A stretch of 64,000 nt of DNA from an uncultured archaeon (GCA_964486045.1 CAZALK010000002.1:64001-128000), one strand, 5' to 3'. Numbered from the stretch's first letter, positions 4,457-29,911 are shown. Translations and numbers: made by a program. Notes: generated by a model from the sequence alone, not told the origin.

Positions 4457-5122
4457 ATGAGAAGAAGAAATATTTTAAAACTTTCCATTATAGCAATACT
4501 CTTAGTATCGGTTATTGGAGGAGCTTCAGCCTATCATGAGTATATTTATACTTTTGAAGAAGATCACACTGCCGGTTGTCATAATGGTAACGCTAACAAT
4601 GGAGAAAGCGTAATTGGAAATTTAACGATAACGATTACTCCGAGTGGATCTTTAGAAACCCTACAAGCGTTTACTATTGATGTTGTTATAAACAATTTTA
4701 CAGAGCTTGACAATAGTGCTTATGAGAATAGAACCACCATCGGCATTTCAAAAGATCTTGGAGATAATGCTGCCTTTCTAAGAGGTGTAAGTAATAAATC
4801 TTTTTCCAGGAGAACTAAAGTTGATAAATATGGAAGTGATTTGACACCTACAACACTTGATGCTGTTGCGCCACAAACTGCAGGAGTATACGAGCTTGTT
4901 ATTACAGCTGTCGCAGCTATGAACCAATCAGATGAAAGTGGATACAATTTCACCTTTGCTAAAGGTTCTATTAGTGTGACTGTTGTAGCACCTACTGGAC
5001 CTGCCGCAGCTCCAGGAACAATTTCAGGGGGCATTCTTACAATTATTCTAGGAAGTGTTTTTACTGTCTCTACCGTTATAATACTAAAAATGAGAAAGCG
5101 ATTTAGAAAAAAAGAACTCTAA
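4457..5122 (+). CDS. Exported, C-terminally anchored Ig/Reeler-like protein with N-terminal HxxxCH (putative atypical mono-heme protein)
   Basis: Signal peptide (ASA), HTAGCH near mature N-terminus, beta-rich domain with AP...G.Y.L, ISGG-TM-KMRKR tail; directly upstream of ccmC. Confidence 0.65.
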   Translation: MRRRNILKLSIIAILLVSVIGGASAYHEYIYTFEEDHTAGCHNGNANNGESVIGNLTITITPSGSLETLQAFTIDVVINNFTELDNSAYENRTTIGISKDLGDNAAFLRGVSNKSFSRRTKVDKYGSDLTPTTLDAVAPQTAGVYELVITAVAAMNQSDESGYNFTFAKGSISVTVVAPTGPAAAPGTISGGILTIILGSVFTVSTVIILKMRKRFRKKEL

Positions 5123-5130
5123 AATTAGTA

Positions 5131-5155
5131 TTTTAATTTTTTTTTTTTTTATTTA
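5131..5155 (+). terminator. Oligo-T archaeal-type terminator
   Basis: Long T run just after the stop at 5122; similar T tracts at ~893-912 and ~3751-3760. Confidence 0.45.
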
Positions 5156-5255
5156 AGAATCTCAAATTTTAAATTGGAATGAAAAAGGTCTTAAATGTTA
5201 AAAAATTTTCAAATTTAATCAAATAGAACAAAAACAAAATTGTATTGATAAGTTA

Positions 5256-5996
5256 ATGAGTATTAATTTACCAAATTTTATTCGAACTAATGGTTTGTTA
5301 ATTATTTCATTATACATGCTATTAATTAACTTATTCTTAATTATTGGATTAAGCGTTTCTAACTTAATAATATGGGGAGAAACGGGCAGAATTGTCTATA
5401 TAGTTTTTTTTTACCATGTATCGGGAGCATGGCTTTCATATTTTTCATTTGGGGTTAGTTTAGTTTCGCATGTTTTATATTTCAAATATAGGGATTTAAA
5501 ATGGAATAGAATTGGTACAATCAGCATTATAGTTGGGATTTTTTTTATTGCTTTTGCATTAATAACAGGATCTTTATTCTACAATGCCACTTCAGGAGGA
5601 TATAATAACATTTTTTGGCAGTGGAGTGATGGAAGGCAAACTATGACCCTTGTATTGTTTCTTTCTTATTTATCATACCTTATTTTTAGAACCATGATTG
5701 AAGATAAAGATAAGAAAGCAAAATTATCATCAGCTCTAGGAATTGCATTATTTCCTACTGTTCCTCTAAGTTACATTTCAGCAATAATATTTACGAGTTT
5801 GCATCCATTGATTAATCCCAGCGCAGGTACCGAAAGTCTCGTATCATACCGTGATCCTATAAAACTTTTTATTTTAATATTTAATTTAATCGCGATTTCT
5901 ATTTTATTTGTTTATCTAGTCCAGAAATTATATAATTTAGATTTGAATAAAGAAAAATTAAATGAAATTATCCAAAGAAAACTAATGGAGGAATGA
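5256..5996 (+). CDS. ccmC: Heme exporter / cytochrome c biogenesis protein CcmC
   Basis: 6 TM; FFYHV, degenerate WWD domain (WQWSDGRQT) and LHP histidines; ccm context. Confidence 0.88.
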   Translation: MSINLPNFIRTNGLLIISLYMLLINLFLIIGLSVSNLIIWGETGRIVYIVFFYHVSGAWLSYFSFGVSLVSHVLYFKYRDLKWNRIGTISIIVGIFFIAFALITGSLFYNATSGGYNNIFWQWSDGRQTMTLVLFLSYLSYLIFRTMIEDKDKKAKLSSALGIALFPTVPLSYISAIIFTSLHPLINPSAGTESLVSYRDPIKLFILIFNLIAISILFVYLVQKLYNLDLNKEKLNEIIQRKLMEE

Positions 5997-6148
5997 GTAT
6001 CCTGTCAGTACAATTCCAAGATATCATCACAATCACTATATGTTATTCATTATTTTGGGGTGTTATTATTATCTTAATCCTATATCCTAAACTCCGACTA
6101 AGAAAAATTTTAAAAAGAATTGAAAATTTTGAAAAAAATCTAGACTGA
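5993..6148 (+). CDS. ccmD: CcmD-like small membrane protein (51 aa, not in ORF track)
   Basis: ATGA overlap with ccmC stop; MSILSVQFQDIITITICYSLFWGVIIILILYPKLRLRKILKRIENFEKNLD has one TM with Y..xW and a basic helix; lies between ccmC and ccmE. Confidence 0.75.
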   Translation: MSILSVQFQDIITITICYSLFWGVIIILILYPKLRLRKILKRIENFEKNLD

Positions 6149-6160
6149 AGGAGGAAATAA

Positions 6161-6499
6161 ATGCATAAATCTAAGTTAATTGCGATTGGAGGAATTGTTG
6201 TCTCAATAATCGTTATTGTTTCATTGATATCAATAAACTCACGACCATATCTCCAGGTTTCTCAAGTTGTATCGAGTCCATCTCAATATAATAATAAACA
6301 AGTTCAAGTTATCGGAATAGTCCAAGGATTTTCTGGTGGAAATTTTAATTTAACCGAAAATGAGCACAGTGTATTGATTGATATGACCGGAGTTTCAATA
6401 CCAGATGAATTAGATAACGGTATACAAGTAGTAGTAACAGGTGTATTTGATTCTTCTTTAATTATAGTTGCGACTCAACTTCTTACGCAGTGTAGCTAA
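6161..6499 (+). CDS. ccmE: Heme chaperone CcmE (Cys-type, ends LLTQCS*)
   Basis: N-terminal TM, PYLQVSQV, OB-fold (VQVIGIV, GIQVVVTGVF), GGAGG SD, position after ccmCD. Confidence 0.82.
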   Translation: MHKSKLIAIGGIVVSIIVIVSLISINSRPYLQVSQVVSSPSQYNNKQVQVIGIVQGFSGGNFNLTENEHSVLIDMTGVSIPDELDNGIQVVVTGVFDSSLIIVATQLLTQCS

Positions 6500-6506
6500 A
6501 TTTGAT

Positions 6507-7232
6507 TCAATCATATAACAGAGTCTGAGAAAGTAAAATTAAGATTGAAATCATAAGAGTAATATGCGCTACTAGGAATATAATTTCATAGAACAACTCG
6601 GATATAAAACTACCCCCCAATATTTTTAAATTTAGAGAGATAATAGGAGCTGTAATTGGTAAAATTAAAGGAAATAATAAAATGGGTAACACAAAGGATT
6701 TATTTTTAACATACATCGAAAAAGCAGATACCATGCTACCGCATATGGATAAATCTAATGTCGGTAATAACACACCTAAAACAATAAAAATACCTAGTTG
6801 AGAAAGGCTCAAATTTTCAACTGACGGTACGGATAAAAAAATGCTGAAAAGGAATAAAATTACCTCAATAAAACTTAATAAAATTAAACAATAGAAAATT
6901 TTACTTAAAAGTATTATATTGCCTGATATTGGGGAAGAGATTAATCCCCCGAGTGTTCCAGACTCTTTTTCTTTAATAAATAACTTTGACATAAGATAAA
7001 TGAGGGTAAAAAAAATTATTAACCAAACTTCAATTACAAAAATTTCTAAAGGCATATTTTGAATTTGAGTGCTGAAGTTATACACCGATGAAAATATAAA
7101 AACTGAGATAATATCAAAAAGAAAAATAGAAAACATATCATTAATTTGCCTAATCTCCGATTTTATATCTTTAAACAGGATTGTTTTAAAAATTTTAAAT
7201 CGTGATTTTTGGTCTTTATCCTTATTATGCAA
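6507..7232 (-). CDS. ccmB: Heme exporter permease CcmB
   Basis: KDIKSEIR, EKESGTL, LPILLFPLILP motifs; 6 TM. Confidence 0.88.
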   Translation of the reverse strand: MHNKDKDQKSRFKIFKTILFKDIKSEIRQINDMFSIFLFDIISVFIFSSVYNFSTQIQNMPLEIFVIEVWLIIFFTLIYLMSKLFIKEKESGTLGGLISSPISGNIILLSKIFYCLILLSFIEVILFLFSIFLSVPSVENLSLSQLGIFIVLGVLLPTLDLSICGSMVSAFSMYVKNKSFVLPILLFPLILPITAPIISLNLKILGGSFISELFYEIIFLVAHITLMISILILLSQTLLYD

Positions 7233-7247
7233 CTATATGAAGTCACC

Positions 7248-7961
7248 CTAAAAATATGATTCAATTTGAATTTCTCTATATTCCTTTTTGGTAAGGAATT
7301 TATTGACCTTACCTCTTTTTAAAACAACGATTTCATCACAAATTTGTGTTAAGATCTCAATTTTATGAGTGGTAAGAATTATCGACACATTCTCTTTATC
7401 TCTCAACTCTATTAATGCATCAATTATTAATTTAGTTGTATTAAAGTCTAAACCTGAAAATGGCTCATCCAAAAACATAATCGAGGGATGATGCATAAAC
7501 ACCCTTATTAATTCTACTTTTTTTTTCATCCCATGCGATAAATTCTCAACAGGTTCGTGAATCCATTTTGTTAAGTTGAATTTTTTTGCGAATTTTTCAA
7601 TTTTGGTTTTAATCCTATTTTTATCAAAATTTTGGTGCAGATTATCATAGAACTTTAAGTTTTCAAAAATAGTCAATTCTTCATAGAGAAAAGATTCATC
7701 GGTTGAAATCCCTATTTTCTTCTTTAAAGCATTTGAATGGTTAATATAATCCATCCCTTTAATCACAATTCTCCCCAAAGTGGGAGTGATTAATCCACAC
7801 ATGATCTTTATTAAGGTTGTTTTTCCAGCTCCGTTCGCACCTGCTATTCCGATTATTGTATTTTCTTTAGTTTTAAAAGATATATTTTTGAGAGCAAAAA
7901 AGTAACCAAATTGTTTTGATACATTTACACAGTTTATTAATTCTTTTTTAGTCTCAATCAT
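7248..7961 (-). CDS. ccmA: Heme exporter ABC ATPase CcmA
   Basis: Walker A GANGAGKTT, LSHGM signature, LDEPF Walker B; immediately upstream of ccmB. Confidence 0.88.
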   Translation of the reverse strand: MIETKKELINCVNVSKQFGYFFALKNISFKTKENTIIGIAGANGAGKTTLIKIMCGLITPTLGRIVIKGMDYINHSNALKKKIGISTDESFLYEELTIFENLKFYDNLHQNFDKNRIKTKIEKFAKKFNLTKWIHEPVENLSHGMKKKVELIRVFMHHPSIMFLDEPFSGLDFNTTKLIIDALIELRDKENVSIILTTHKIEILTQICDEIVVLKRGKVNKFLTKKEYREIQIESYF

Positions 7962-8094
7962 GTAATAACCGTATTAACCATATCATATTTTAAAATGAAA
8001 GAAAATTCTATTTGATACTATCGAAAGAATTTAAAATGAAATTCAGCATTTTTATATCTTTAAATTAATAATAGAAAAAAAAGTTTTTCAGAGT

Positions 8095-9834
8095 TTATTT
8101 TATTTCATATTTGGGTTCAAGCTTCTTAATACTCTTTTTTTTTGTAAGGAACAAAGCAAGTATTGAAGGGACTATCCCGATTATTAATATAATAAATCCA
8201 GTAATGAAAAAGATATCTTGATACAATTCTAAATCAGGATTAATTAAAAATCCTATCATAATGAATGAAATTCCTACATGGATAATCGTTTTTGAATTTA
8301 ATCTAAAAAAGTATACAAATCCTTTTCTAATTTTAATATTCTTTGATAATTTGAAGATGGAAGCAAACATTGATGTGAAGTAGATTACCATTATCGGATT
8401 TATCCATACATTCAAGAGAAATAATAGTATGTAGGAAACGACTAATTGGATTGATATTCCAATAAGAATTGCTGCTATTATCCATTTAACCTCAAAATAC
8501 TCCCATAAAGAACAAAATATAAGTGTTACGGCTAATCCCACAGCTAACGTCAATGTTGTAATGATGAAGTATTCAGGACCGATATAAATAACATTGATGG
8601 GAAAATAACTTGACAGCAATAGAGTGAATGGAGGAACAAAAAGTCCAAAAATACAAACGAATGAGAAGGCAAACAAAAGAATATAACTCAAGTAGTTAAA
8701 GAAAAGCTTTTTATTCTTATATTCCTCCATTAAATAATCTAATACAATATATATAACATAAAGAGAAAAACATAATAAAATGAGTCCCACAACTACTACC
8801 CAGATTACTAACTCTGCTCCTCCTGCAAAAGAGTGGAGAGGACTTAGATTACCAGTTCTAGTAATAAGTGTAGAAAAAATAATTGCAAAGAAAATTAAAC
8901 TTACGTTTATTTTAATTAATAACGGATTTTTTTTTTTAAAAATTATTGTATGGAAGAATGCTGTAATAAAAAACCATGGAACAAGCAATACTGTTTCAAC
9001 TGGATCCCAACCCCAATATCTTCCCCAATTTAAAGCAATTTTAGCCCAATAAGCACCTAATCCAAGGCTTAAAGTTGAAACTAACCATCCAAATTTTAAG
9101 GAAAAATCGTAAAAATTTCGTTGATAGGAATTCAGCAATTTAGAGTTTCGAGTCATCACCTCAGCAATGATAATTGTAAAAGGGATTAAGAAGATCGCAT
9201 AGGTAATGAATGTAAAAAGTGGGTGCCAAATCATAAAGGGAGATATTAAAAGGGGGTTTAAACCTCGGCCAGTTGGGAATGCAAGTGTTAATTCAACGTT
9301 AAATGGGTTCATTGAAAATAAAATTATTGAAAATATTGTCGAAATAATTAAGGATGTTATTACAGAGCGTATAAACACTAGATCTTCTTTATTTTGATTC
9401 TTGATTCGATAAAAATTTATTACGATTGAATTAAACAGCATCCAGGTCATGATGGAACCGTCTTGACCTGCCCAAATCGCTACAATCTTATATATTAAAG
9501 GGAGTGTCGTAGCATTATAGTTCATGACATATACTACTTCGAAAATATTATTCAGAAAACTATACATCATGAGTATAAATATGACTAATGATAAACTCAT
9601 GTTGACTAAAGAGAAAATATAATAGTTCTGTTTTTTTATAAATAGAAAAATTATATCAACAATCATAAGAGCAATTAGTAAAAGAAGAAATAAATTACCT
9701 AAGATTAAGATAACAAAAATTCTATTACTAATTTCGATGAGGTCTAAAAGCACAGGAATGAATACAAATAAACTTGCCATTAGTACAAGATTAAGCGCAA
9801 TAATTTTTTTTGTTGATATTTGACTAATCTTCAT
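8095..9834 (-). CDS. ccmF: Cytochrome c heme lyase CcmF
   Basis: WAGQDGS, GRGLNPLL, WHP, WGRYWGWDPVET, LHSFA, IIHVG. Confidence 0.92.
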   Translation of the reverse strand: MKISQISTKKIIALNLVLMASLFVFIPVLLDLIEISNRIFVILILGNLFLLLLIALMIVDIIFLFIKKQNYYIFSLVNMSLSLVIFILMMYSFLNNIFEVVYVMNYNATTLPLIYKIVAIWAGQDGSIMTWMLFNSIVINFYRIKNQNKEDLVFIRSVITSLIISTIFSIILFSMNPFNVELTLAFPTGRGLNPLLISPFMIWHPLFTFITYAIFLIPFTIIIAEVMTRNSKLLNSYQRNFYDFSLKFGWLVSTLSLGLGAYWAKIALNWGRYWGWDPVETVLLVPWFFITAFFHTIIFKKKNPLLIKINVSLIFFAIIFSTLITRTGNLSPLHSFAGGAELVIWVVVVGLILLCFSLYVIYIVLDYLMEEYKNKKLFFNYLSYILLFAFSFVCIFGLFVPPFTLLLSSYFPINVIYIGPEYFIITTLTLAVGLAVTLIFCSLWEYFEVKWIIAAILIGISIQLVVSYILLFLLNVWINPIMVIYFTSMFASIFKLSKNIKIRKGFVYFFRLNSKTIIHVGISFIMIGFLINPDLELYQDIFFITGFIILIIGIVPSILALFLTKKKSIKKLEPKYEIK

Positions 9835-10155
9835 ATAAATTACCTCAATTGGAAATATTAATGAAAAATAATAAACATTTTCAATACTTATATTTTGGAC
9901 TAAAATGGGGAAATTTTAGCTATAATGGTTGTTCTGTGAGAGGAGATTTTGGTTAACTCTAAGTCTATTTTTATATAATTTTGGGACATATGTTAGATTT
10001 TTTCTATTGTTTCAAGATCAACTTTATTATCCTTGATTTTCTTCTTAAATAAAAAAAAATGTAAAATTTATAATTTAAAAGAAAGATTTTTTTCTATAGT
10101 CAAACTATTATTTTAATGATTATTTTTTACCATTAAAGAATTTAGTCTTGGATTC

Positions 10156-10482
10156 ATGTCAATCGAATTAACAAACAAATCCCGGGAATATATTGGTAAG
10201 AAGAATATAAACAATTTGTTTATTGATTTAATTTATATGGAGGAATCCTGTGCACAAATTTATGACCCTAAGATAAGAATAATTGAAAAAAGAGATCTAG
10301 AAAAATTTGAAGATTATGATAATATTTCTATTGATAATTTAACTTTATATATTTCAAATGCATTTACTAAAATTTATGGAAAACTTGACAAATATCTCCT
10401 GGATACAAGTGGGATTGTTAAGAAGAGTTTAGTTCTTAGGAATGTAGACTCAATTATAAGAAATATCTGTAAACCAAAATAA
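10156..10482 (+). CDS. Small hypothetical protein, loosely HesB-like/CC-Se-motif-like
   Basis: 108-aa ORF, IELTNKSREYI start, ESC; first gene before TlpA/ccdA. Confidence 0.5.
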   Translation: MSIELTNKSREYIGKKNINNLFIDLIYMEESCAQIYDPKIRIIEKRDLEKFEDYDNISIDNLTLYISNAFTKIYGKLDKYLLDTSGIVKKSLVLRNVDSIIRNICKPK

Positions 10483-10511
10483 AATCAAAAAGGAATGACG
10501 CTCCTAGAGTT

Positions 10512-11045
10512 ATGAAAAAAAAAATTTCACAAATACTTCCTCTATTTGTTATTGTTTTTGGAGCTATTTTTTTTGTCACCTTTATAGGTTTTGTAGCAAT
10601 ATCCGAATCTGGGAACACGGGATCTAATTTATACAACACAGATTTACCGTATGTAGATATTGACGGAGAGACAATAAGATTAACGGATCATAACGAAAAA
10701 GTCATAATTTTATATTTTTTTTATTTGAGTTGTCCATATTGTAAGATTTCAGATCCTTTTTTAGCAGCTATAGAAGATGATTATTTTAGCAGTCAGTTAT
10801 TAATCATTACTATTACTATTGCTACTGCAGATTCAGACATAAACCTTAATAATTGGAGAAATAACCTTAACGCTTCTTGGAATATTGTTCGTGATGACAT
10901 AAGTCTCACCTACGCCAGTAATTGGGATGTTGCATATACTCCTACAGCAGTAATTATCCATCTAGATAGCAATTTCTTGGAAATAATTGAGGGATCACTT
11001 AATTTTGATGCTAAAGTAAGAAGTGAACTTCAATTATTAATTTAA
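10512..11045 (+). CDS. Membrane-anchored TlpA/ResA/CcmG-like thioredoxin
   Basis: N-terminal TM, DIDGETIRL, CPYC, YTPT cis-Pro loop; followed by ccdA. Confidence 0.82.
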   Translation: MKKKISQILPLFVIVFGAIFFVTFIGFVAISESGNTGSNLYNTDLPYVDIDGETIRLTDHNEKVIILYFFYLSCPYCKISDPFLAAIEDDYFSSQLLIITITIATADSDINLNNWRNNLNASWNIVRDDISLTYASNWDVAYTPTAVIIHLDSNFLEIIEGSLNFDAKVRSELQLLI

Positions 11046-11102
11046 ATTATGAGAATATTTCTCGTCTAAAATCCAAACCAAAGTAATCTAATCCATTTAT
11101 CA

Positions 11103-11846
11103 ATGACAGATGTTTTTATTTTTTTTTTAGTATTAGGTGGTGGAATCCTTTCTTTTATCGCTCCCTGTAATATAGCTGTTTTACCATCTTTTATAAGCTA
11201 CGTTGGAAGTCAATCAAAAACTGCAAAGAAAAGCGCGTTATTGAGTCTATTCTTCTCATTAGGTTTTATTTTTATGTTTACTGTAATCTCTACTTTAATT
11301 ATTATTATTAGTGGTTTTATCAGATACACATTTTGGCTAAAGTTGTTTTCTGGAATAGTATTAATTCTTCTTTCTATCTATCTGTTTTTTTATAAACAGG
11401 TATCATCATCAACTCCTAAGTCGAATCTATCTTTAGAGGAAATAGATAATGAAGGAAATCATGCTCAAGATTTAAAAGGTGGATCGACTATAGATAAATC
11501 TAAAAGGAATTATGAAGGTTATTCAGGATCTTTTTTCCTCGGTTTTTCGCTAGCTTATTCATGGCTCCCATGTGTTACTCCCATTTACATGTCGGTGGTC
11601 ATAATTATTTCAAATCAAGCAGATTTCTTACTTGGTATCATTTTGTTTCTAGTTTATGGATTAGGAATTATGATCCCTTTTATTCTAATTGGAGTTTTAA
11701 TCGGGGTAATAAAGATGAGGTTTCTTGTAAAATTAATGAAAATAGGATCTAAGATTCAGAAAATTTTTGCTTTAATTTTATTTTATATAGGAATTGAGTT
11801 AGTTATGTCTGCGTTTGGGATTCCTGGTTTGATACCTTATTTCTAA
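11103..11846 (+). CDS. ccdA: Cytochrome c biogenesis disulfide reducer CcdA
   Basis: SFIAPC...LP and WLPCVTP motifs; 6 TM; YGLGIMIPF. Confidence 0.9.
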   Translation: MTDVFIFFLVLGGGILSFIAPCNIAVLPSFISYVGSQSKTAKKSALLSLFFSLGFIFMFTVISTLIIIISGFIRYTFWLKLFSGIVLILLSIYLFFYKQVSSSTPKSNLSLEEIDNEGNHAQDLKGGSTIDKSKRNYEGYSGSFFLGFSLAYSWLPCVTPIYMSVVIIISNQADFLLGIILFLVYGLGIMIPFILIGVLIGVIKMRFLVKLMKIGSKIQKIFALILFYIGIELVMSAFGIPGLIPYF

Positions 11847-11959
11847 AGTTTAATGAATTATTAACTCAATTTCTTCCTTCTTAGCTTTCTTACCATATCC
11901 TCAGGCTCAGTTGTCATTTTCTGACATCTTAATAAAACTTTTAGTAAGGGGATATTGAA

Positions 11960-12120
11960 ATCGAGAAACTTAATATCGGCAACCAGATTCCAAGTATCAC
12001 TACGAAATTTAAAACTTCTATTTATGAACTTTAAATGAAATAAGAGAATTAGAAAATGAAGATATTGTAGGTTTATCTAAATTAAAAAAGACAAAAGTAT
12101 TCCGAAATCCCCTTAGATAT
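11960..12120 (+). pseudogene. Frameshifted relic of a leucine-rich-repeat gene
   Basis: Manual translation across a frameshift gives RNLKLLFMNF/NEIRELENEDIVGLSKLKKTKVFRNPL, fitting LxxLxLxxNxIxxL...NPL. Confidence 0.45.
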
Positions 12121-12585
12121 AATTCAATTAAAATCAAAGGATGTTCCGGTTTTTATATAAAATATTAAAGGTTTTAATGGGTTTTAATTATAAATTAATT
12201 TCCTTTTCTTGATTGATAAATTCATTTTAGTAAAATGATCTATATCACCAATTTGTTAAGGATTAAATTATTCATCATCTAAATTTCCTAATTATTGACC
12301 CTAAAATAAATATATCAAATTTTTAATTGTCAGATCTTCTATCTCTTTTTTTTAAAAAAATTTGATCTATATCGGTCTTCTATAGGTTTGAATGATCAAT
12401 TCTGATAATACTTCATGATTAAATAATCCATTTTGATAATAAAATTAGAAAGGGTTTACTAAAAAGTAAGAATAATATACTAAAATCGATGCAGATTTTG
12501 CTAAAAAGTTATAAATGTGTGATCATATTTAATTATTAGAGTTAAAAAAATTTAATTATTCAAAATCTTTGGATGGATAGGAAAT

Positions 12586-13476
12586 ATGAAAAAAAAGGCT
12601 CTTATTATTTTTTTAAGTATCTTTAGTTTAATGATTGCGTTTGCAGCATTTAATGGAACGGCAAGGCCTGGTTATGGTGAAAATCATAGTGCTTGCCATG
12701 ATTCAGCAGGATATACGATTGAAACTAATGTTGAAGGGGATATTCTAGCCACTAATTCTTCAAATGTTGTTTTTAATATAACAGCGACGGGTACTAACTT
12801 GTTTGTGCAAGTAATTCCTGCCGCTGAAGATAATGATCTTTTTGTGATTTCACCCTCTACAAACAGAATAAATGATAGTTCGATAAATGATTTGGACCCA
12901 ACGGCAAATTCGATAATAGTAGAATTTAATGTCACAACACCTGCAACTGATGGTTATTACACTATTTTTATAATTGCAGGTGATGATACAACTGGTTCAG
13001 CCATAGATTTCGCGTATCACCGAATTATTATTAATGTCGGAGATGTTCAGGCACCTGTTGAAGATCCCATTGCAAAAATATTTTCGGCAATATTTGATCA
13101 TCTGGGATTTTACTTAGGGATGCCAGCCCTAATATTCTTATCGCTTGGAACTGTTTTAGTGTTAGTAGATGAGAATAAATTCGTCAAGTCGCATGGATTT
13201 CTTGCTGGAGCTTCTTGGATTTTGACCGTAATCAATGTAACAGCAGCCTTTATAAAAATTGAACCTCAAGCTTGGTTATTGGGTTATGAGTTGATTTATC
13301 ATATTCCTCACATAATTTTAGGAGCTGTAGGGTTAGTAACTGGATTTATTAGTATGTTATTCGGAATTGCAGCTGAACGACGTCCAGCCAGATTATGGGG
13401 ATATATAACATTAATTTGCTGGTGGGCAGCCTTCTTTACAGGTTATTTATTGAAACCTAATCTCTTCATATTTTAA
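12586..13476 (+). CDS. Exported HxxCH Ig/Reeler-like domain fused to a 4-TM cytochrome b561-like domain (copy 1)
   Basis: Signal peptide, GENHSACH, TPATDGYYTIFIIAGD; TM His in FDHLG, KSHG, HIPHIILG. Confidence 0.65.
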   Translation: MKKKALIIFLSIFSLMIAFAAFNGTARPGYGENHSACHDSAGYTIETNVEGDILATNSSNVVFNITATGTNLFVQVIPAAEDNDLFVISPSTNRINDSSINDLDPTANSIIVEFNVTTPATDGYYTIFIIAGDDTTGSAIDFAYHRIIINVGDVQAPVEDPIAKIFSAIFDHLGFYLGMPALIFLSLGTVLVLVDENKFVKSHGFLAGASWILTVINVTAAFIKIEPQAWLLGYELIYHIPHIILGAVGLVTGFISMLFGIAAERRPARLWGYITLICWWAAFFTGYLLKPNLFIF

Positions 13477-13507
13477 CTATTATAATAATTAAAAGTGTAA
13501 TCTTACA

Positions 13508-14995
13508 ATGAGAAAGACAAATAACAAACAAGTTAAAGAAAACAACAAACGAGTAGAAGAAAGGGACCTCGAGAGTCAATTTTTGGATTTTATATCCTCT
13601 TATCATGTTAGCACCAATCGATATGAACTTGAATCTGCTTCGGCTGATCTCACTTCATTACCATCCTATCATTATAAATTCAAAAATAAATATCTTGCAA
13701 GTTATATAGTTCGTCCAGCTAATACTGATGAGCTTTCCTTAGCAATTAAAAAGTGCAGGGATTTAAAAATCCCAGTTACAATTAGAGCTGCCGGTACGTC
13801 TTGCTTTTCTTCAGCAACGCCTTCTAAAGGTGGTGTTATTATTGATGTGCGAAGATTAAACAAAATCGTTGAAATTGACGTAGACAATAAAACAGTTAAA
13901 GTTGGGTCGGGGATTTCATGGCTTAATTTAATAGAAGCACTTGCAGATTATGGACTTGAACCTAAAGTTTTTCCAACAAGCTTTAAGACCTCATGCGTGA
14001 GCGGTTTTATTGCAACCCCGGGAAATGCAGGTATAGGTGTTATTAAATATGGCTCGATGGAGGATTCAATTATTTCATTAGAATTAGTTAAGCCTGACGG
14101 GTCAATAATTAAAATTTCAAAAGATTCCAAGGAAGAAATTTCTATTCATGATGTTATAGGAACATATGGAATTTATGGAGCGGTTGCGAGTGTTGAAATA
14201 TCTATAACTACATTGAAGACTTCATTAGAGATAATTGGTTATGGTTTTGACTCTGTTGAAGAGGCTTTCAACTTTTATTCAATAATTAAAAATAACCTCC
14301 CAAATAAACCCTTGTTCCTCTCAATTTCTGAGAGAAATTTCGAAAAATATTCTCATGTTAATTTCCCTGAAAGTGAATGGTTAGTATGGGCAGTTTTCTT
14401 TGATGATCCTGAGGAAACTTCAAAAAGTGTATCAGACATTAAAGATCATGCTTCCACACTGAATGCTGTTGAGGTTGAAAGTTCATATTTAAAAGAAAAA
14501 TGGCGGGATATTAGCGATGCTGAAGTAGCAATTGGATTATCAACAAGAAATTTAATATTTCAAGAATATTGGGTATCTGATGATAGAATAAAGGATTTTA
14601 TAGAACGTTACGTAAATAATCGAAAGAAATATAAATTTCCTGTTGCTTCTTACGCAATTTCAGGAGAAACGGGATGGACTCGGTTAAAAATCTTTGGACT
14701 TACTGATATCAACAGAACCCGAGAATTTTTCGCTGTTAAAGCTTTCTTACATGATTTGGCTGTTCAAGCATTCAGTCAGGGAGATAGACTCTATACTATA
14801 GGGATTGTCAATACTTTTTACTTACTTAAATTTAAAAAAGAGGAAGTACTAAACTGGAAAGCTTTGAAAGATAAATTAGATCCCCAATACTTGTTTAATT
14901 CACATCGATTAATTAAAGCTAACATGAAATTCTGGCGTGTAGCTCTGTTATTTAAAATGGCTAAAATCATGTACAAAATTTTTTGGAAAAAATAA
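13508..14995 (+). CDS. FAD-binding oxidoreductase, GlcD/D-lactate dehydrogenase (VAO/PCMH) family (copy 1)
   Basis: VRPANTDE, IRAAGTS, GGVIID, GTYGIYGAV, KDKLDPQYLFN. Confidence 0.88.
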   Translation: MRKTNNKQVKENNKRVEERDLESQFLDFISSYHVSTNRYELESASADLTSLPSYHYKFKNKYLASYIVRPANTDELSLAIKKCRDLKIPVTIRAAGTSCFSSATPSKGGVIIDVRRLNKIVEIDVDNKTVKVGSGISWLNLIEALADYGLEPKVFPTSFKTSCVSGFIATPGNAGIGVIKYGSMEDSIISLELVKPDGSIIKISKDSKEEISIHDVIGTYGIYGAVASVEISITTLKTSLEIIGYGFDSVEEAFNFYSIIKNNLPNKPLFLSISERNFEKYSHVNFPESEWLVWAVFFDDPEETSKSVSDIKDHASTLNAVEVESSYLKEKWRDISDAEVAIGLSTRNLIFQEYWVSDDRIKDFIERYVNNRKKYKFPVASYAISGETGWTRLKIFGLTDINRTREFFAVKAFLHDLAVQAFSQGDRLYTIGIVNTFYLLKFKKEEVLNWKALKDKLDPQYLFNSHRLIKANMKFWRVALLFKMAKIMYKIFWKK

Positions 14996-15102
14996 ACTGA
15001 ATGTTAAAATCAAATATAATAAAAAAGGAATAAAATATAACGATTTAATTTAAAATAATAATATTTTCAACTATTAAAGTACAAAAAAAGAGCGAATAAT
15101 AA

Positions 15103-16449
15103 ATGAGTGAAGGTAAAGAAAAGGAGGATTTAAAAAATGTAATTACTTCTGGTCCACCAGTAGCGGGGTTAGTCTCTCCTTCGAAAGAAAATCTTGTTGA
15201 ACCTACAGATCCAAAAGATCCAAAATACTCCTATGAACGTTGTACTCACTGTGGGTATTGTCGCCATGTTTGTAAAGTATATAATGTTTCTTGGAGTGAA
15301 ACTGATTATGCTGGTGGTCGAAACAGAATTATCAAAGCGCTTGATCGTAAGGATATTAAGTTTGACAAAGAAGATATTATCCCTTCTGTTTTTCGCTGTA
15401 TGTTATGTGGAAATTGTGCTGTTGTTTGTCCAGTGGGAGTTGATACTCTAAGTGTATTTCAACACTTTAGAAAAACAGTTGTAAAAAAGGGGGCGATGCC
15501 AGAAAAATTAAAAGTTTTAAGAGGTTCAATTATGGAGAATAATAATCCATTTCTTGAAAAACATGTTGATAGATTCAACTGGTGCGATTCCTGTGAAGAA
15601 GGGGCAAGAGCTTACGAACGTGCAAAACAAACTTCTGCTGTAAATGAGGGAAAACAAAACTCTTATAAGGTTGGCTATTTTACAGGCTGTACTTCTGCAT
15701 ATAGAAATAAGGAACTCGTTTCTGCTACAAGCCAAGTCTTGGAAAAACTAGGTATTGGATTTGTGGTTTTTCCTGAAGAAAAATGTTGTGGATCTGTTTT
15801 ATTTAGAACCGGATTAGAAGATGATGCTCTTGAAGTTGTGAAAAGTAACTATGAAATGATTCAAACCAGTGGGGTAGATGAGGTAGTTTTTTCTTGCTCT
15901 GGGTGTTTTTCAACCTTTATGTTAGAGTATTCTAAATTTGCAGGCGGTAATCTTGGATTCAATCTTTTTCATATAACTCAATACGCCTTAAAAGTTGCAA
16001 AAGAAAAAAATCTAAAGATAAGATATACAAAACGATCTAAAGAGGATCCCTTAATTATAACCTACCATGATCCTTGTCATTTAGGGAGATATTGTGGCGT
16101 TTATGAAGAACCAAGGGAACTTATTCGAAGAATAGAGGGGGTAAAGTTGTTAGAAATGAAACATAATAGAGATATGTCTTGGTGTTGTGGGGCTGGGGGT
16201 GGAGTGAAGGCTCTCTATGGGGATATCGCAGTAGAAGTTGGGAGAGACAGACTAGCTGAAACTCGTGCTTGTATGGTACGGATCCGGGAAGATCGTTTGA
16301 AAGAAGCTTTGGAAACTACTGCTGAAGTCTTAGTTAGTTCTTGTGTTTTTTGCAAGAATAATCTATTCCAAGTAGCAAATGAAGATAATTCGGCTATTAA
16401 AGTCATGGATATCTCACAGCTTTTGGCTGATTGTGAATTTATTAGATGA
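15103..16449 (+). CDS. GlcF/HdrD-like Fe-S oxidoreductase (2x[4Fe-4S] + 2 CCG domains) (copy 1)
   Basis: CxxCxxCxxxC twice, YFTGC, KCCG, YHDPCHLGR, WCCGAGGG, CVFC. Confidence 0.92.
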   Translation: MSEGKEKEDLKNVITSGPPVAGLVSPSKENLVEPTDPKDPKYSYERCTHCGYCRHVCKVYNVSWSETDYAGGRNRIIKALDRKDIKFDKEDIIPSVFRCMLCGNCAVVCPVGVDTLSVFQHFRKTVVKKGAMPEKLKVLRGSIMENNNPFLEKHVDRFNWCDSCEEGARAYERAKQTSAVNEGKQNSYKVGYFTGCTSAYRNKELVSATSQVLEKLGIGFVVFPEEKCCGSVLFRTGLEDDALEVVKSNYEMIQTSGVDEVVFSCSGCFSTFMLEYSKFAGGNLGFNLFHITQYALKVAKEKNLKIRYTKRSKEDPLIITYHDPCHLGRYCGVYEEPRELIRRIEGVKLLEMKHNRDMSWCCGAGGGVKALYGDIAVEVGRDRLAETRACMVRIREDRLKEALETTAEVLVSSCVFCKNNLFQVANEDNSAIKVMDISQLLADCEFIR

Positions 16450-16483
16450 CTCGTGTCAGTTTACTTTAAAATCTTCTAAAATT

Positions 16484-16861: not shown

Positions 16862-17275
16862 AATTTTACTTTTCTGCCAATATATATTAATTTAAACTTA
16901 TCTTTCCAATAATAATATGATATTCTACATATTAAAAAGTTTTGATCTTAAACTATCACAATTATATTAGTTAATTATTGAATGATTTTATTAATTTAAG
17001 TAATAAATGTGATATTTTTAGTATGGATTATGTACCAAATTGTTGAAATGACCATCAAAAAACTATTTTGGTTTTTTTTGAGACACAATTTTTTTTATTC
17101 CTTGAATATTCTTAAGAAATTCATCCAATCTGCTATTATTGGTAATTATTAAAAATTAAAGTAAAAAATATATGGTTTAAAATTTTTTTGTTTCATAGTA
17201 TTATAATCTTTTATCAGTAGTACTAATTTTTATCAAATTCTGAAAATTAGAAATAGAAATTTTTGTGTGATTTAT

Positions 17276-18088: not shown

Positions 18089-18335
18089 AAAAGAGAACAA
18101 TAATATTCAAAAGTTAGATATAACTGGGAAAGTTTGTCCGATGACTTTTGTTTATACTAAACTAACTTTAGAAAAAATGAATTCTGGAGAAATTCTAGAA
18201 GTTACATTAGACTTTCCAGCTGCAGTAAAAAATGTGCCTACAAGTTGTGAAAGGCAAAATATAGGAGAATTACTGGATACTAAAACTATCGACAATGAAA
18301 AAAAAGTTTGGATTCTTACAATCAAAAAGATTTAA
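18081..18335 (+). CDS. tusA: Sulfur carrier TusA/SirA family
   Basis: LDITGKVCPMTFV; GTG start overlaps the moeB stop. Confidence 0.88.
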   Translation: MSEKENNNIQKLDITGKVCPMTFVYTKLTLEKMNSGEILEVTLDFPAAVKNVPTSCERQNIGELLDTKTIDNEKKVWILTIKKI

Positions 18336-18347
18336 GGCAAAAATGAT

Positions 18348-19376: not shown

Positions 19377-19613
19377 CGAATTCTATTGTTTTTTTGAAGT
19401 TTAACAACTGAGCTGAGAAGGGGTAATTTTCTCTTAATAATAATTTCATTTCAGCTTTAAATATGTGTGATTAAGATTTTTCCTTGAGAAATCAATTTGT
19501 GTGTATAAACATTACGTATTTATCGCATTTAGATAATATATAAATAAAGCTTCTATTTCTATTGACATACAAGAGAACTTAATATTATTCTAACAAATTT
19601 AGTGTGTATTATT

Positions 19614-22600
19614 ATGATTTCTAAAAAGAAAAATTTTTTTGAGAATTCTGATAACTTTATATCTCTCATTACTGAAGTGACAAACGATTTGCTAGTTGTA
19701 ACTCAAACTGATTATAACTTTAAAATTCAATTTATTAATGATTGTATCTTCTTGGAGAGATTAGGATATTCACGTAATTCAATAGAAGAAACTTCATTTT
19801 TGAATTTAATATATCTCGATGATGTTGAGAAAACAGTGAATTATTTAAAAAATAATATAAATTCTACGGCTCAATCACAAGAAATAAGAATCAAATCAAT
19901 GAAGGATAAATTTATTTGGGTTGAAATTACGGCAAAAAAATTTACTTATGGGGCTACTGATGAACAGATTTTGATAAATCTAAGAGATTTAACAAAACAA
20001 AAAGAAATTGAAGGTAAATTAAAAGAATCAAAACAAAAATTTGAAATATTTAACGAAAGATATCAGAATCTATTTAAAAATATGTTTGTAGGTTTCGCCT
20101 ATCACAAAATTATCGTGAATAAAGAGAATAAACCAATTGATTATGAATTCTTAGAAGCAAATCCTGCTTTTGAAAAACTTACTGGTTTAAAAGTAGATGA
20201 AATAGTTGGCAAGACTGTTAGAGAAATATTACCAGGAATAGAAAATGATCCTACAGATTGGATCGGGAAATATGGTAAGGTCGCACTATCGGGAATTCCA
20301 ATAACCTTTGAAAGCTATGCAGAACCTCTCGATCAGTGGTTTAGTATTACTGCATATTCCCCCAAAAACGAATATTTTGCTGTTATATTTACGAATATTA
20401 CTAAACACAAAAAAGCAGAATATGAGCTAAAGGAATCCGAAAACAAATTTAGGACCTTATTTGACAATGTTGGAGATTCTATAATAATTGTCGATCTTGA
20501 CAGTAATATACTTGAAGTTAATAAGACGGCATGCAAACACTTAGGATATTCTAAAGATGAATTGCTAAAAATGACACCAATGGATTTAGTGACTCCTGAA
20601 TATGCGGTACTTATTCTAAGTCGAATAAAAGAATTAACCCAAAAAGGTAGTGCTTTTTACGAGAGCATTACTGTTTCTAAGGACGGTGAAATACGTCCAG
20701 TTGAAATAAGTTCAAAAATTATTAATTATAAAAATGAAAAAGCAGTTCTTAGTGTAATTAGAGATATTACTGAACGAAATAGAGCAAAAGAAAAATTAAA
20801 AGAATCAGAAGAAAAATACCGATTAATTTCTGAAAATGCAAATGATATGATTGTAGTTCTAAATGATAAATTCGAATATGAATATCTTAATGAAAACATG
20901 CATAAACATTTATTAGGTTATTCAAAAAATGAGTTATTAGGAAAAACTCAATTGCATTTAATACATCCAGATGATTTAAAGCAAACAATCATTGCAACTA
21001 GTAGAATTTTAAGGAAAGGGAAAGGATCCCATCAAGTTAGGTTCTTACATAAGAATGGATCTTATAAGTGGTTAGAAATAACAGGCAAAACTTTTTTTGA
21101 TAGTAGAGGTGATAAAAAGGTTTTAGCAATATCAAGAGACATTACAGATCGTAAAGAAGTAGCAAAGAAATTAGAAGAATCAGAAGAAAAGTATCGATCC
21201 TTGTTTGAAAATATGAATGTTGGTTTTGCATATCATGAGGTCCTTGTTGATGACGAGAATAAACCTATCGATTACAAATATATTGAAGTAAATCCTGCCT
21301 TTGAGAAATTGACTTCCTTAAAAAAGGAAGATTTAATTGGGAAAACTGTTACTCAAGTATTACCTGGAATAAAGAATGATCCTGCAGATTGGATTGGTAA
21401 ATTCGGGAATGTTGGACTCACGGGAATTCCTTTAAATATAGAAGAATATTCAGAACCAATAAAAAAATGGTATAAAGTTTCAGGTTATTCTCCTAAGAGA
21501 CGGTTTTTTGCAGTAACGTTTACAGATATAACTGATCAAAAAGAAGTTGAAAGCAGAATCAGAGAATCTGAGGCTAAATATCATGATTTATTTGAAACAT
21601 CTCCTCTTGGAGTAATTCTTACTGATTTAAAAGGAGATATTATAGAATGCAATTCTGCTATCGAAGATATCACAGGATATCCGATTGAGAAATTCATTGG
21701 TAAAAACATCAGGGATTTAAGTATTTATTATGAAAATGGGCTTAAAGTCTTATTAGAAGGATTTAAAGACCTGTTAAACCAAAATAAATTGGAATATGTT
21801 GAGTTTCAGATAAAACATAGAAACAATCGATTAAGATGGGTTCAATTAAAGTCGAGAATCGTGAAAAGAAAGGAAGAAAGTTTCATTTTATCTGTTGTAA
21901 ATGATATTTCTACACAAAAAACGGCAGAAGAAGCATTAAAAGAAAGCGAAAAAAAATATAGAGACTTATTAGATAGTTCATCAATAGGTGTTATGGAAAT
22001 AGATGTCATAAACAACAGGATTTCCTATATTAATCCCAGATTATTAGCTATTATTGGTTATAAAAAAGAAGAATTAACAGGAGTGGCAATCCGTGATAAA
22101 ATTATCCATCCAAATGATTTAAGTAAATTAATCCCATCAAGTGAGGAAACAGATCTAGAATTTAGAATTATTGATAAATATGGAAATCTGAAATGGTTAA
22201 ATGGGAAGAAAATTCCTCACTTTGATGAGAATAAGGCTATAGTTAGTGTTAGATTTTGGCTAGATGATATTACTGAGAAAAAAATGTATGAAGAGCTTAT
22301 CTATGAGTTAAATATCAATTTCTTAAATTTTACCGCAGATATTAGAAATAATATAGAATTATTATTAAACACAGGGCTTAAATTACTAAATGGGGATCTT
22401 ATCCTGTATGCTCATAAGAATAGTTCAGATGGGGAAGAAAATTATCAGCTAATATCTTCAGATAATGAATCCCTTGTTTATACCCCTGAGGATTTTTTTG
22501 AGAATCTCTTTATAAGCGAGATCTTCAAGGAAGAACACGATTTTCCTCAATCATATTTTGATGTTGATAAAAAAAAATATGCAAGAACCGATCCATTTCT

Positions 22601-23513
22601 CAAAAAAAACGGAATTAAGGGTTGCTTTGGAAAAATTATCAGATCTCAAGACGACTTAGATAATGTTGTCTGTGTTTATTATAAAGAAAATCCTAAAATT
22701 ACTGGTCAAGATAAATTAGTAATGTTTTTAATTTGCGATGCAATCGAAATTGAACAAAGACGATGGCAAGTACAACAAGATTTAGAAAAACAAAACATTA
22801 CCTTAAATAAAATGAACCATTTGAAAACTGAGTTATTTTCGAGGACGTCTCATGAATTAAAAACTCCTTTGATATCAATTAAAGGCTTTACTGAACTTTT
22901 GCTAACACTCCATAAGTCTAAATTAGATACTGAAATGATATCAATTTTAGAAGAAATAAAAGAAGGCAGTAAACGTCTAGAAAAAACTATCAATTTGCTC
23001 CTTGAAGGTACGAAATTAGAAGCAGAACAATTAGAATTGAATCTTAGGGACGATGATTTAGCATTTCTAATAAAATTTTGCGTTAAGGAATTAAAGGGAC
23101 TCGCAACGCTTAGAAATCAAAATGTATCAATTAACTTACATGATGAATTAAAGACCGAATTCGACAAGGAAAGAATTTATGAGGTTATGTCAAATTTACT
23201 TCTTAATTCAATCAAGTATACACCACCAGGGGGAGTAATCTCAATTTTCTCTGAATCAAATGATAATTTTTATATAATTTCAATAAAAGACAACGGAATA
23301 GGATTTACAGAAGAAGAAAAAACCCAAGTTTTTAAGCAATTTGGAAAAATTGAACGTTACGGTCAAGGATGGGATGTTGCTATAGAAGGAACCGGTCTTG
23401 GGCTTTATATTACTAAAAAATTAGTTGAATTACATGGTGGAAAAATTTGGCTTGAATCGGAGGGAAGAAATAAAGGAAGTACATTCAAATTTTCCCTTCC
23501 AAGGAGAAATTGA
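19614..23513 (+). CDS. Multi-PAS sensor histidine kinase
   Basis: About 7 PAS repeats joined by LKESE linkers; SHELKTPL H-box, N box, DNGIG, GTGLGL; alternative GTG start at 19602. Confidence 0.93.
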   Translation: MISKKKNFFENSDNFISLITEVTNDLLVVTQTDYNFKIQFINDCIFLERLGYSRNSIEETSFLNLIYLDDVEKTVNYLKNNINSTAQSQEIRIKSMKDKFIWVEITAKKFTYGATDEQILINLRDLTKQKEIEGKLKESKQKFEIFNERYQNLFKNMFVGFAYHKIIVNKENKPIDYEFLEANPAFEKLTGLKVDEIVGKTVREILPGIENDPTDWIGKYGKVALSGIPITFESYAEPLDQWFSITAYSPKNEYFAVIFTNITKHKKAEYELKESENKFRTLFDNVGDSIIIVDLDSNILEVNKTACKHLGYSKDELLKMTPMDLVTPEYAVLILSRIKELTQKGSAFYESITVSKDGEIRPVEISSKIINYKNEKAVLSVIRDITERNRAKEKLKESEEKYRLISENANDMIVVLNDKFEYEYLNENMHKHLLGYSKNELLGKTQLHLIHPDDLKQTIIATSRILRKGKGSHQVRFLHKNGSYKWLEITGKTFFDSRGDKKVLAISRDITDRKEVAKKLEESEEKYRSLFENMNVGFAYHEVLVDDENKPIDYKYIEVNPAFEKLTSLKKEDLIGKTVTQVLPGIKNDPADWIGKFGNVGLTGIPLNIEEYSEPIKKWYKVSGYSPKRRFFAVTFTDITDQKEVESRIRESEAKYHDLFETSPLGVILTDLKGDIIECNSAIEDITGYPIEKFIGKNIRDLSIYYENGLKVLLEGFKDLLNQNKLEYVEFQIKHRNNRLRWVQLKSRIVKRKEESFILSVVNDISTQKTAEEALKESEKKYRDLLDSSSIGVMEIDVINNRISYINPRLLAIIGYKKEELTGVAIRDKIIHPNDLSKLIPSSEETDLEFRIIDKYGNLKWLNGKKIPHFDENKAIVSVRFWLDDITEKKMYEELIYELNINFLNFTADIRNNIELLLNTGLKLLNGDLILYAHKNSSDGEENYQLISSDNESLVYTPEDFFENLFISEIFKEEHDFPQSYFDVDKKKYARTDPFLKKNGIKGCFGKIIRSQDDLDNVVCVYYKENPKITGQDKLVMFLICDAIEIEQRRWQVQQDLEKQNITLNKMNHLKTELFSRTSHELKTPLISIKGFTELLLTLHKSKLDTEMISILEEIKEGSKRLEKTINLLLEGTKLEAEQLELNLRDDDLAFLIKFCVKELKGLATLRNQNVSINLHDELKTEFDKERIYEVMSNLLLNSIKYTPPGGVISIFSESNDNFYIISIKDNGIGFTEEEKTQVFKQFGKIERYGQGWDVAIEGTGLGLYITKKLVELHGGKIWLESEGRNKGSTFKFSLPRRN

Positions 23514-23674
23514 AAGTTTCCTCAAAATCCCAATTCCGTCTTATTTTAAATTTTTAATATTATCTGATAGTCAATAGAAGATTTAGAAGAATTGGACTCC
23601 TAATTTTTTTTAAAACTTGTTTTTTATTATTATATTGATGTTGATTTTATTAACCCTTTCCTGCAAAAATAAAG

Positions 23675-23920
23675 GTGAGAAGAATTAAAGGAGATAAGGA
23701 AGACCATGAACTAGAAGAGATAGAAGAAGTCAAAAAGTATTTTAAAAGAAACTATTCAATATTTTCAAAAAGAGTTCGAGAGTTACTAATGGATTTAGAG
23801 CTTCCTGAAAATAGAAAAAAACTTCTAATAAAGGAACTAGCTTTTTTACCAGAAAAAAAACAGATTAAATATATTGAAGAACTTTGCAGAATTTCCAACG
23901 TTAAAATTAGAGATTCTTAG
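23675..23920 (+). CDS. Hypothetical protein
   Basis: 81-aa charged helical ORF. Confidence 0.55.
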   Translation: MRRIKGDKEDHELEEIEEVKKYFKRNYSIFSKRVRELLMDLELPENRKKLLIKELAFLPEKKQIKYIEELCRISNVKIRDS

Positions 23921-24391
23921 ACGTTTCTTTTTTTAAAATTAAATTTTAAGAAAAGCATTTAATTTCTTGAATATTGGGGTTAAAAATAAAATATTTTTAT
24001 TAAAACAATATAAATTTAAAAAGTTGAGATGTAAATTAAAAGCCTTTCTTAATTTTAATGTCATTAAGTATGAGAAATAACTAAATTTGTATATTTTATT
24101 TTAAATTTCTTTAATTAATTTTTTATGATAAACTGTTTTACCCAAATTGAGGAGTTTTTGATTAAATTGAAACAAATTAGGAAGTAAAGTATATTACAAT
24201 TAAATACTAAAATCTTTACAACGAATATGATTATATGATTGAATTTGCTGAAAATCCAGTAAAAGAGAGATAATCTCTTCTATTGAAAAAAAAAAAATGG
24301 ACTTAGAAGTAAGTTTAATTCTGAAACCGAACAATTCAAATACTAAAAAAAATTTTAAAATAAAACAAATTTTATAAAAAGGATTTTCAAT

Positions 24392-25303
24392 ATGAAAAAG
24401 AGAATCATAGGAATATTATTTTTTTTTATAAGTGCCGTTACACTACTTTTCGTTCTAAACGCAACCGCAATCCCTCCTTATGGAAATGATCACAATTCTG
24501 CTTCATGTCATAATTCTCTCTCTGGAGCGTATACAATTACAACAAATACAACAGATATAATTACAGCAGATAATTCTTCAGTTATTAATATTGAAATAAC
24601 AGCCACAGGATCAAATTTATTTGTACAGGCTCGATTTAATGCAAAAGATAATGATGAGTTCGTAATTACAACTCTTAAACTAGAAGATAACACCGGATAT
24701 GATACAAATCCTAGTTTAAATGCAATGACAGTTGTTTTTAATATCACTACTCCAGCAACTGATGCTTATTACACTCTTTTTATCATAGCTGGAGATGACT
24801 TAGCTGGTCGGCCAGAGTTTGCTTATGCAAATATTGGGTTTAGTATAGGCGGAGTTCTTCCTCCGACAATTCCTATTGATTACATTGGAATAATTTTCTC
24901 TCACACAGCTAATTTTATTATAGGCGGAATAGCTATAATTACTCTCGCAGTTGGTACTGTCTTGTATTTAGTTAATCAAGAAAAATTCACTAAATCTCAT
25001 GGTCTTCTAGCTGGTACATCATTAATTTTCACGACAATCAACATAGTAGCAATAATTCCGTATTTAGCAAAACAGGGAGTCTTACTAGGTGTGGTTCAGT
25101 CATTACCCCTAACCTTTTTGCATATCATTTTAGGGACAATAGGATATGCAGCGGGAATCATAGCTTTTATAGCTGGGTTAAGCGGACATAGATCGAGAAT
25201 ATACGGTTTTATTGCTTTAGGTTGTTGGAGTTTTAATTATATACAAGGTTTTCTATCACTAATGGCTGCATTAAGTATAGTTCCAGCGGGGTTTATATTA
25301 TGA
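24392..25303 (+). CDS. Exported HxxxxCH Ig/Reeler-like domain fused to a 4-TM cytochrome b561-like domain (copy 2)
   Basis: Paralog of 12586 (ITATGSNLFVQ, TPATDAYYTLFIIAGD); HNSASCH; His in FSHT, KSHG, LHIILG, GHRSR. Confidence 0.65.
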   Translation: MKKRIIGILFFFISAVTLLFVLNATAIPPYGNDHNSASCHNSLSGAYTITTNTTDIITADNSSVINIEITATGSNLFVQARFNAKDNDEFVITTLKLEDNTGYDTNPSLNAMTVVFNITTPATDAYYTLFIIAGDDLAGRPEFAYANIGFSIGGVLPPTIPIDYIGIIFSHTANFIIGGIAIITLAVGTVLYLVNQEKFTKSHGLLAGTSLIFTTINIVAIIPYLAKQGVLLGVVQSLPLTFLHIILGTIGYAAGIIAFIAGLSGHRSRIYGFIALGCWSFNYIQGFLSLMAALSIVPAGFIL

Positions 25304-26781: not shown

Positions 26782-26804
26782 AATAAAGGGAAATTGAGCG
26801 AAAA

Positions 26805-28950: not shown

Positions 28951-28955
28951 AAATC

Positions 28956-29897: not shown

Positions 29898-29911
29898 AAG
29901 GAGTTAAAAAT

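Follow-up and report, generated by a model that had tools for sequence, protein, structure and literature searches.

Analysis of a 64,000-nucleotide window from an uncultured archaeon (GCA_964486045.1, CAZALK010000002.1:64001-128000; genome G000), treated here as a member of the class Lokiarchaeia, identified three genes for exported proteins that carry an H-x(2-4)-C-H motif in place of the CxxCH of c-type cytochromes. We consider these to be putative monoheme c-type cytochromes with one thioether bond, matured by a derived System I whose ccm genes lie in the same window, in which the first histidine of the motif (slot His) would be a non-covalent residue of the heme pocket; the probability that we attach to this reading is roughly 55%. 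On sequence grounds, this would represent a c-type cytochrome and a System I of a new variant kind.

The first-pass annotation had placed the motifs at 4457, 12586 and 24392, which are the gene starts; each of the three motifs proved genuine and in frame (Table 1, where residue and gene coordinates are counted on the whole window). An N-terminal hydrophobic helix precedes the motif in each protein, export being judged by a hydropathy rule and not by a signal-peptide predictor. C41 is the sole cysteine in the 4457-5122 protein, and the one extra cysteine of the 12586 and 24392 proteins (C278) lies in the final membrane helix, confirming that the motif cysteine is alone in each exported domain. 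The annotated likeness of these beta-rich domains was also upheld: a single profile retrieved all three from this genome together with two paralogues on contig C5 (expectation values (E) from 1e-45 to 5e-25) and no further match with E <0.04, and AlphaFold predicted an immunoglobulin-like (Ig-like) beta-sandwich that follows the motif loop and, for the fused form, also a bundle of four helices (pLDDT 91 and 84). One C5 paralogue reads H-G-G-C-H and the other S-T-I-G-C-H, in which the first His is absent. Among 171 exported-looking open reading frames (ORFs) of this genome, H-x(2-4)-CH within the first 30 mature residues was observed four times against about 0.007 expected, indicating that these motifs are not chance occurrences. 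A further candidate at C1:500615 (A-L-E-C-H) does not belong to the family and was rejected.

Conservation and register of the slot histidine

Homologues bearing names were from Asgard archaea, under labels such as Promethearchaeota and Lokiarchaeota. Alignment of 120 homologues of the 12586 protein showed that the cysteine and the next histidine were invariant (120/120) and that the slot His was present in 119, with spacers of two (85), four (34) or one residue (1); neither CxxCH nor any first cysteine occurred in this set (0/120). The Cys-His core of the exported domain was invariant in the alignments of three homologue sets; a lack of conservation among homologues, named in the first-pass annotation as a refutation, was not observed.

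With a profile of 64 domains, homologues were retrieved from 41 genomes that belong to a second Asgard family, Thorarchaeota, in which the motif was C-x2-CH (17), C-x4-CH (11), C-x3-CH (2) or of rarer spacing. Gene order was the same as in Lokiarchaeia, and some of these genes adjoined ccmF and cytochromes with 6-7 hemes. The slot residue lay exactly six residues past a proline in 117 of the 120 forms with His and 19 of the 32 with Cys, and this held for both x2 and x4 spacers. Given the shared register and proline spacing, the slot His takes the position of the first cysteine (Cys1) of C-xn-CH. The annotated replacement of the first cysteine by histidine therefore stands, but separate replacements in the paralogues are not established: the best tree, with the motif left out of the alignment, split the His paralogue lineages (support 82/50), yet a single clade was not rejected (p-AU 0.214) and parallel origin is not claimed.

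Distant representatives (n=150) comprised 72 with H-xn-CH, 40 with C-xn-CH and 18 with a lone CH. Over all homologues the spacer ranged from 1 to 6 residues and the first His was missing in several, and His-less single-Cys paralogues (x-x-x-CH) were found in genomes possessing Ccm, including the C5 paralogue above and genomes G107, G067 and G122. Single-Cys x-CH domains were also observed in a third Asgard family (f15; L110:8794-9756 and L111:2125-5826), with a PF01578 gene present and no ccmE detected. Additionally, an H-x3-CH domain was fused to a LanC-like/GH76-like domain at L176:192-2462 and L177:927-3185, the latter with ccm genes nearby.

The ccm locus and its candidate clients

The annotated adjacency to ccmC was confirmed for the 4457 gene, which is separated from it by 133 bp. 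In related genomes, domain genes were positioned directly 5' of ccmC, between ccmA and ccmF, or head-to-head with ccmF, and in most of the fetched loci they were interleaved within the ccm block; a more divergent metagenomic locus shared this layout. Our survey of 161 Lokiarchaeia genomes, in which Ccm-positive was defined as ccmF or ccmE found, showed the domain in 30/30 Ccm genomes, the domain without Ccm in three and neither in 128, which is a pattern and not a statistical test since the genomes are related and the genes linked. Homologues in Lokiarchaeia thus occur almost exclusively in Ccm genomes (30 of the 33 domain-bearing), contrary to the refuting case set out in the first-pass annotation. 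In Thorarchaeota, 36/41 domain-bearing genomes had a ccmE match. The homologue from G016, a single-contig genome without Ccm, reads G-A-H, with the His kept and the Cys lost.

CcmA, B, C, E and F are all encoded, and CcmC and CcmF of Lokiarchaeia retain their WWD motifs and His residues, as expected for System I*; the Ccm machine is remodelled but intact. At 30 Lokiarchaeia loci, CcmE ended in QCS-stop (27), QCST (1) or YCCDRS (2), and the CxxxY motif described as universal in archaeal CcmE (PMC9084895) was absent; 27 Thorarchaeota-type loci have C-P-S-K/R-Y. Selenocysteine or read-through past the CcmE cysteine was rejected, as the stop codon varies among genomes (TAA, TAG, TGA). CcmF of Lokiarchaeia lacks an outer domain of ~130 residues between the last two helices that Thorarchaeota CcmF possesses. 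In comparison to the archaeal System I* of M. acetivorans, with which it shares CcmABCEF and a Cys-type CcmE, the Lokiarchaeia system differs in a CcmE without Tyr and tail, a CcmF without the outer domain, a CcmD-like gene, and apparent substrates that are mostly single-Cys (PMC9084895). This CcmD-like small gene is kept at 27 Lokiarchaeia loci, with ccmC on one side and ccmE on the other (PF04995 E 0.009; one homologue 8e-4); CcmD has been described as absent from archaea (PMC9084895). Among the Lokiarchaeia ccm regions fetched, just one besides that of the window contained the thioredoxin/CcdA-like pair.

Other genes of these loci were also recorded. Surface proteins of 800-1500 amino acids are encoded in the ccm block at L049:6911-11452, L050:8876-11737 and L052:9774-12170, each with one N-terminal HxxCH domain and a long repeat-like stalk, in which the motif Cys is the sole mature cysteine and no second heme motif was found besides HxxCH. 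In G067 (L045:6713-10980 and 11047-14627) there are two adjacent ccmF copies, a CcmE ending Y-C-C-D-R-S and a pair of large proteins whose single Cys lies in C-x2/3-H (C-D-T-G-H, C-G-S-G-H). A heme biosynthesis cluster, assigned by sequence reading only, is located 8-17 kb 5' of the window in the source genome (C2:47118-55582), with hemA, C, L, B, SUMT, Ahb-like regulators/decarboxylase and radical SAM genes.

No exported CxxCH cytochrome was found in the source genome, as none of its 36 CxxCH ORFs passed the export filter; these resemble proteins of the zinc-ribbon, Fe-S or cytoplasmic kind. Just one exported two-Cys heme motif was detected in this genome, in the EB_dh-family protein at 2485-3732. 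Among the 30 Lokiarchaeia Ccm genomes, PF00034 (Cytochrom_C) and PF13435 (C554) had no match (0/30) and EB_dh was present in four, while named control genomes matched both PF00034 and PF13435 and two Thorarchaeota matched PF13435. Ccm is likely to have few clients other than the one-Cys domain proteins, which would be its main clients. In G108 an EB_dh protein, of unrelated fold, has likewise lost Cys1 (G-A-T-K-C-H). A single-Cys EB_dh paralogue with A-P-C-M (window 1-857; L066:1336-2520) may represent a Cys-Met heme site, and distant EB_dh-like exported proteins from Ccm-negative Lokiarchaeia (L067-L074) start with Y/W-(P)-G-(D/E)-G-D-C-x3-H, a further N-terminal Cys/His motif that is conserved.

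Proposed maturation and alternative explanations

In every known system the first cysteine is linked with the 2-vinyl and the second with the 4-vinyl group of heme, and the histidine binds iron (PMC3268396; PMC3601427). By analogy, the retained cysteine of the Lokiarchaeia motif would add to the 4-vinyl and the adjacent His would bind iron, as in CxxCH. Once the signal peptide has been removed after export, the motif would lie close to the new N-terminus (X-Pro for the fused type), and heme from the nearby biosynthesis cluster would pass from CcmC to the terminal cysteine of the shortened CcmE and on to CcmF. With no Cys1, the second vinyl would be freed from CcmE without a replacement bond, which the remodelled CcmE and CcmF would have to permit. 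The slot His may provide a hydrogen bond or assist in heme release and would less likely be a ligand, and the N-terminal amine is a candidate sixth ligand because neither a conserved Met nor a conserved His occurs in the beta-domain. Fused copies would connect a FAD/Fe-S dehydrogenase in the cytoplasm, b hemes held by the four-helix domain and the c heme outside in one path of electron transfer, with the short anchored type acting as a surface carrier.

Several observations weigh against a single-thioether cytochrome. The strong conservation of the slot His is not accounted for by simple loss of Cys1. System I of E. coli is very poor with single-Cys substrates and traps a CcmE-heme-cytochrome adduct (PMC3268396), so that the Lokiarchaeia system would need another route of heme release. 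The Tyr of CcmE is dispensable in E. coli (PMC3601427); its loss need not signal new chemistry, and the truncation of CcmE alone therefore proves nothing on mechanism. Two genomes, G151 (93% complete) and G160 (78%), retain C-H without detectable Ccm, which counts against the proposal unless ccm was missed in assembly. The co-occurrence of domain and Ccm, drawn from two genera, is not independent evidence, and the cytochrome screen of the other genomes covered three families only.

The conservation of the slot His could alternatively reflect a mixed double linkage, a tentative explanation in which the Cys-4-vinyl thioether is joined by a C-N bond from the slot His to the 2-vinyl, with the His replacing Cys1 in freeing heme from CcmE. 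Such a linkage would escape the trapped intermediate of single-Cys substrates and is in keeping with a His exactly at Cys1, with the spacer choices of two, three or four found in Thorarchaeota, kept far above neutral replacement; His-vinyl bonds are known in GlbN (PMC11951088) and E. coli CcmE (PMC3268396). If real, it would be a bond for which we found no earlier report, possibly made by the truncated CcmE and the CcmF without its outer domain. However, no report was found of a maturation system making this bond on a substrate, 18/150 distant matches are x-CH, and His-less forms persist in Ccm genomes (C5 of the source genome, G107, G067, G122). These forms, together with the Cys1 loss of the G108 EB_dh protein, indicate that maturation should not need the His, and it is for their persistence that a single thioether is preferred over a His-vinyl bond.

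A role in binding non-covalent b-type heme, with the trimmed Ccm acting as a heme exporter or loader and the Cys and His as ligands (thiolate/His or bis-His), appears improbable. The shortening of both CcmE and CcmF, the retention of C-H in two Ccm-negative metagenome-assembled genomes and the G016 homologue with His and not Cys would suit it, but the invariant C-H pair corresponds to the second Cys and the His in genuine C-xn-CH homologues, the heme-binding Cys of CcmE and the ligase motifs of CcmF are conserved, and adjacent Cys and His would be badly placed for opposite faces of one iron. Less probable still is the annotated His-Cys-His Cu/Ni site, or a Zn site, on a surface Ig domain with no role in heme binding. 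Two His and one Cys do form a plausible ligand set, and in three genomes the domain occurs although no Ccm was detected; against this, the three ligands are neither all retained nor at fixed spacing (spacer 1-6, first His absent in some), homologues carry canonical CxxCH, the neighbourhood is one of ccm genes and not of metal handling, and Ccm would be left nearly client-less in most of these genomes.

If these proteins are c-type cytochromes, whether with a single thioether or a mixed linkage, they would constitute a hidden class of surface cytochromes in Lokiarchaeia. A natural System I with nearly all single-Cys clients, in which CcmE and CcmF show matched changes and for which Thorarchaeota supply a two-Cys control, would make two general questions, why cytochromes c have two thioethers and how heme leaves CcmE, testable by swaps of motif and machine. 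Screens for CxxCH overlook these candidates in about one fifth of Lokiarchaeia genomes (30/161), and trans-membrane, possibly extracellular, electron transfer in the relatives of eukaryotes may consequently be underestimated. A literature search found no paper on HxxCH with heme, and nothing on these proteins under Lokiarchaeia or Asgard cytochromes or Ccm, subscription journals lying outside the search.

Fold, membrane domain and comparison with known systems

Pfam, NCBIfam and PDB sequence searches with the three proteins gave no family above cut-off. Fold searches with the exported domain returned Ig-like matches of a generic kind, with Z values of up to 9.6, as well as a cluster that contains Reeler (TM 0.59) and a weak match to cytochrome f (Z 6.9, rmsd 4.2, rank 31); these searches neither demonstrate nor exclude kinship to Reeler or cytochrome f. 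Cytochrome f, in which the N-terminal amine ligates iron, resembles these proteins in its beta-rich exported domain, a heme motif close to the N-terminus of the mature protein, an anchor at the C-terminus and an X-Pro start; the weak fold match and a different motif spacing make this a lead only. The annotated likeness to choice-of-anchor V/Reeler proteins was retained only in part, as NF041895 matched 20/64 domains weakly, all below cut-off (26.7 against 42 bits for the best match listed), and none of the three window proteins. Reeler/spondin-like monoheme cytochromes c have been predicted in archaea (Ignicoccus Igni_0759, cluster 38), and Igni_0759 and choice-of-anchor V proteins resemble the Lokiarchaeia domains in general layout, with an exported beta-sandwich, an N-terminal heme motif and an optional C-terminal anchor; Igni_0759, itself no more than a prediction, carries CxxCH (PMC4429474).

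Euglenozoan single-thioether cytochromes c/c1 (AAQCH, FAPCH) have likewise replaced Cys1 and kept the second Cys and His, but have a eukaryotic class I fold, a non-polar replacement and maturation by KCCS, in comparison to the archaeal Ig-like fold, conserved His and System I described here (PMC8262978). A His-2-vinyl bond has a precedent in GlbN (PMC11951088), and a single Cys-4-vinyl bond in a prokaryote has one in SfmD (PMC8179489); both differ in being autocatalytic and in their folds and motif orders (HxnHxxxC in SfmD).

In the membrane part of the 12586 protein, H172, H203 and H242 were invariant, H239 was present in 115/120 and M257 was nearly invariant, with similar residues in Thorarchaeota. 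The four-helix domain, by its conserved His a candidate b561-like b-type cytochrome, had no Pfam match, and its fold matches were generic bundles. On the inferred topology, H172 and H239/H242 would lie outward and H203 with M257 (H266 in the second copy) inward, which would be enough for one or two b hemes. The position of the fused copies ahead of FAD/Fe-S dehydrogenase genes suggests trans-membrane electron transfer. Tmc, Hmc, DsrMKJOP and HdrDE combine an outer c heme, membrane b hemes and a cytoplasmic CCG Fe-S protein in a comparable manner; the fused copies differ in their unrelated four-helix membrane domain, monoheme Ig domain and GlcD-like FAD partner.

Table 1. Features of the window discussed in the text.
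Feature	Position	Strand	Remarks
EB_dh paralogue, single-Cys A-P-C-M at equivalent site	1..857	+	starts upstream, C2:63718
Exported EB_dh-family protein with C-x3-C-H	2485..3732	+	motif 2923-2940
Short-type exported Ig-like domain, H-x3-C-H, anchored in the membrane at its C-terminus	4457..5122	+	directly 5' of ccmC
Motif H37-T-A-G-C41-H42	4565..4582	+	gene 4457
ccmC	5256..5996	+	PF01578 E 7e-10; both His kept; WWD variant W-Q-W-S-D-x-R
ccmD-like 51-aa single-helix gene	5993..6148	+	between ccmC and ccmE; PF04995 E 0.009, below cut-off
ccmE ending Q-C-S-stop	6161..6499	+	PF03100; heme-binding Cys kept, Tyr of CxxxY gone
ccmB	6507..7232	-	PF03379 E 9e-10
ccmA ABC ATPase	7248..7961	-	PF00005 and position
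ccmF	8095..9834	-	PF01578 E 4e-23; WWD and four His kept; outer domain missing
Membrane-anchored thioredoxin (CPYC) and CcdA-like thiol-reduction pair	10512..11846	+	
Exported H-x2-C-H domain fused to four-helix membrane domain	12586..13476	+	conserved H172, H203, H239, H242, M257
Motif H34-S-A-C37-H38	12685..12699	+	gene 12586
GlcD-like FAD protein and GlcF/HdrD-like 4Fe-4S/CCG protein	13508..16449	+	3' of 12586
Second fused copy, H-x4-C-H	24392..25303	+	membrane His 171, 203, 244, 266
Motif H34-N-S-A-S-C39-H40	24491..24511	+	gene 24392
Second FAD and Fe-S/CCG pair	25300..28091	+	3' of 24392, stop/start overlap

The fused paralogue of contig C5 (C5:152750-157580, which holds both paralogues) is followed by a gene for a membrane HdrC-like protein and one for an HdrB-like protein, and not by a FAD/Fe-S pair. 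Within the window, a multi-PAS histidine kinase is encoded between the two modules (19602-23513), and an hdrCBA-like cluster lies past the second module (28396-31924).

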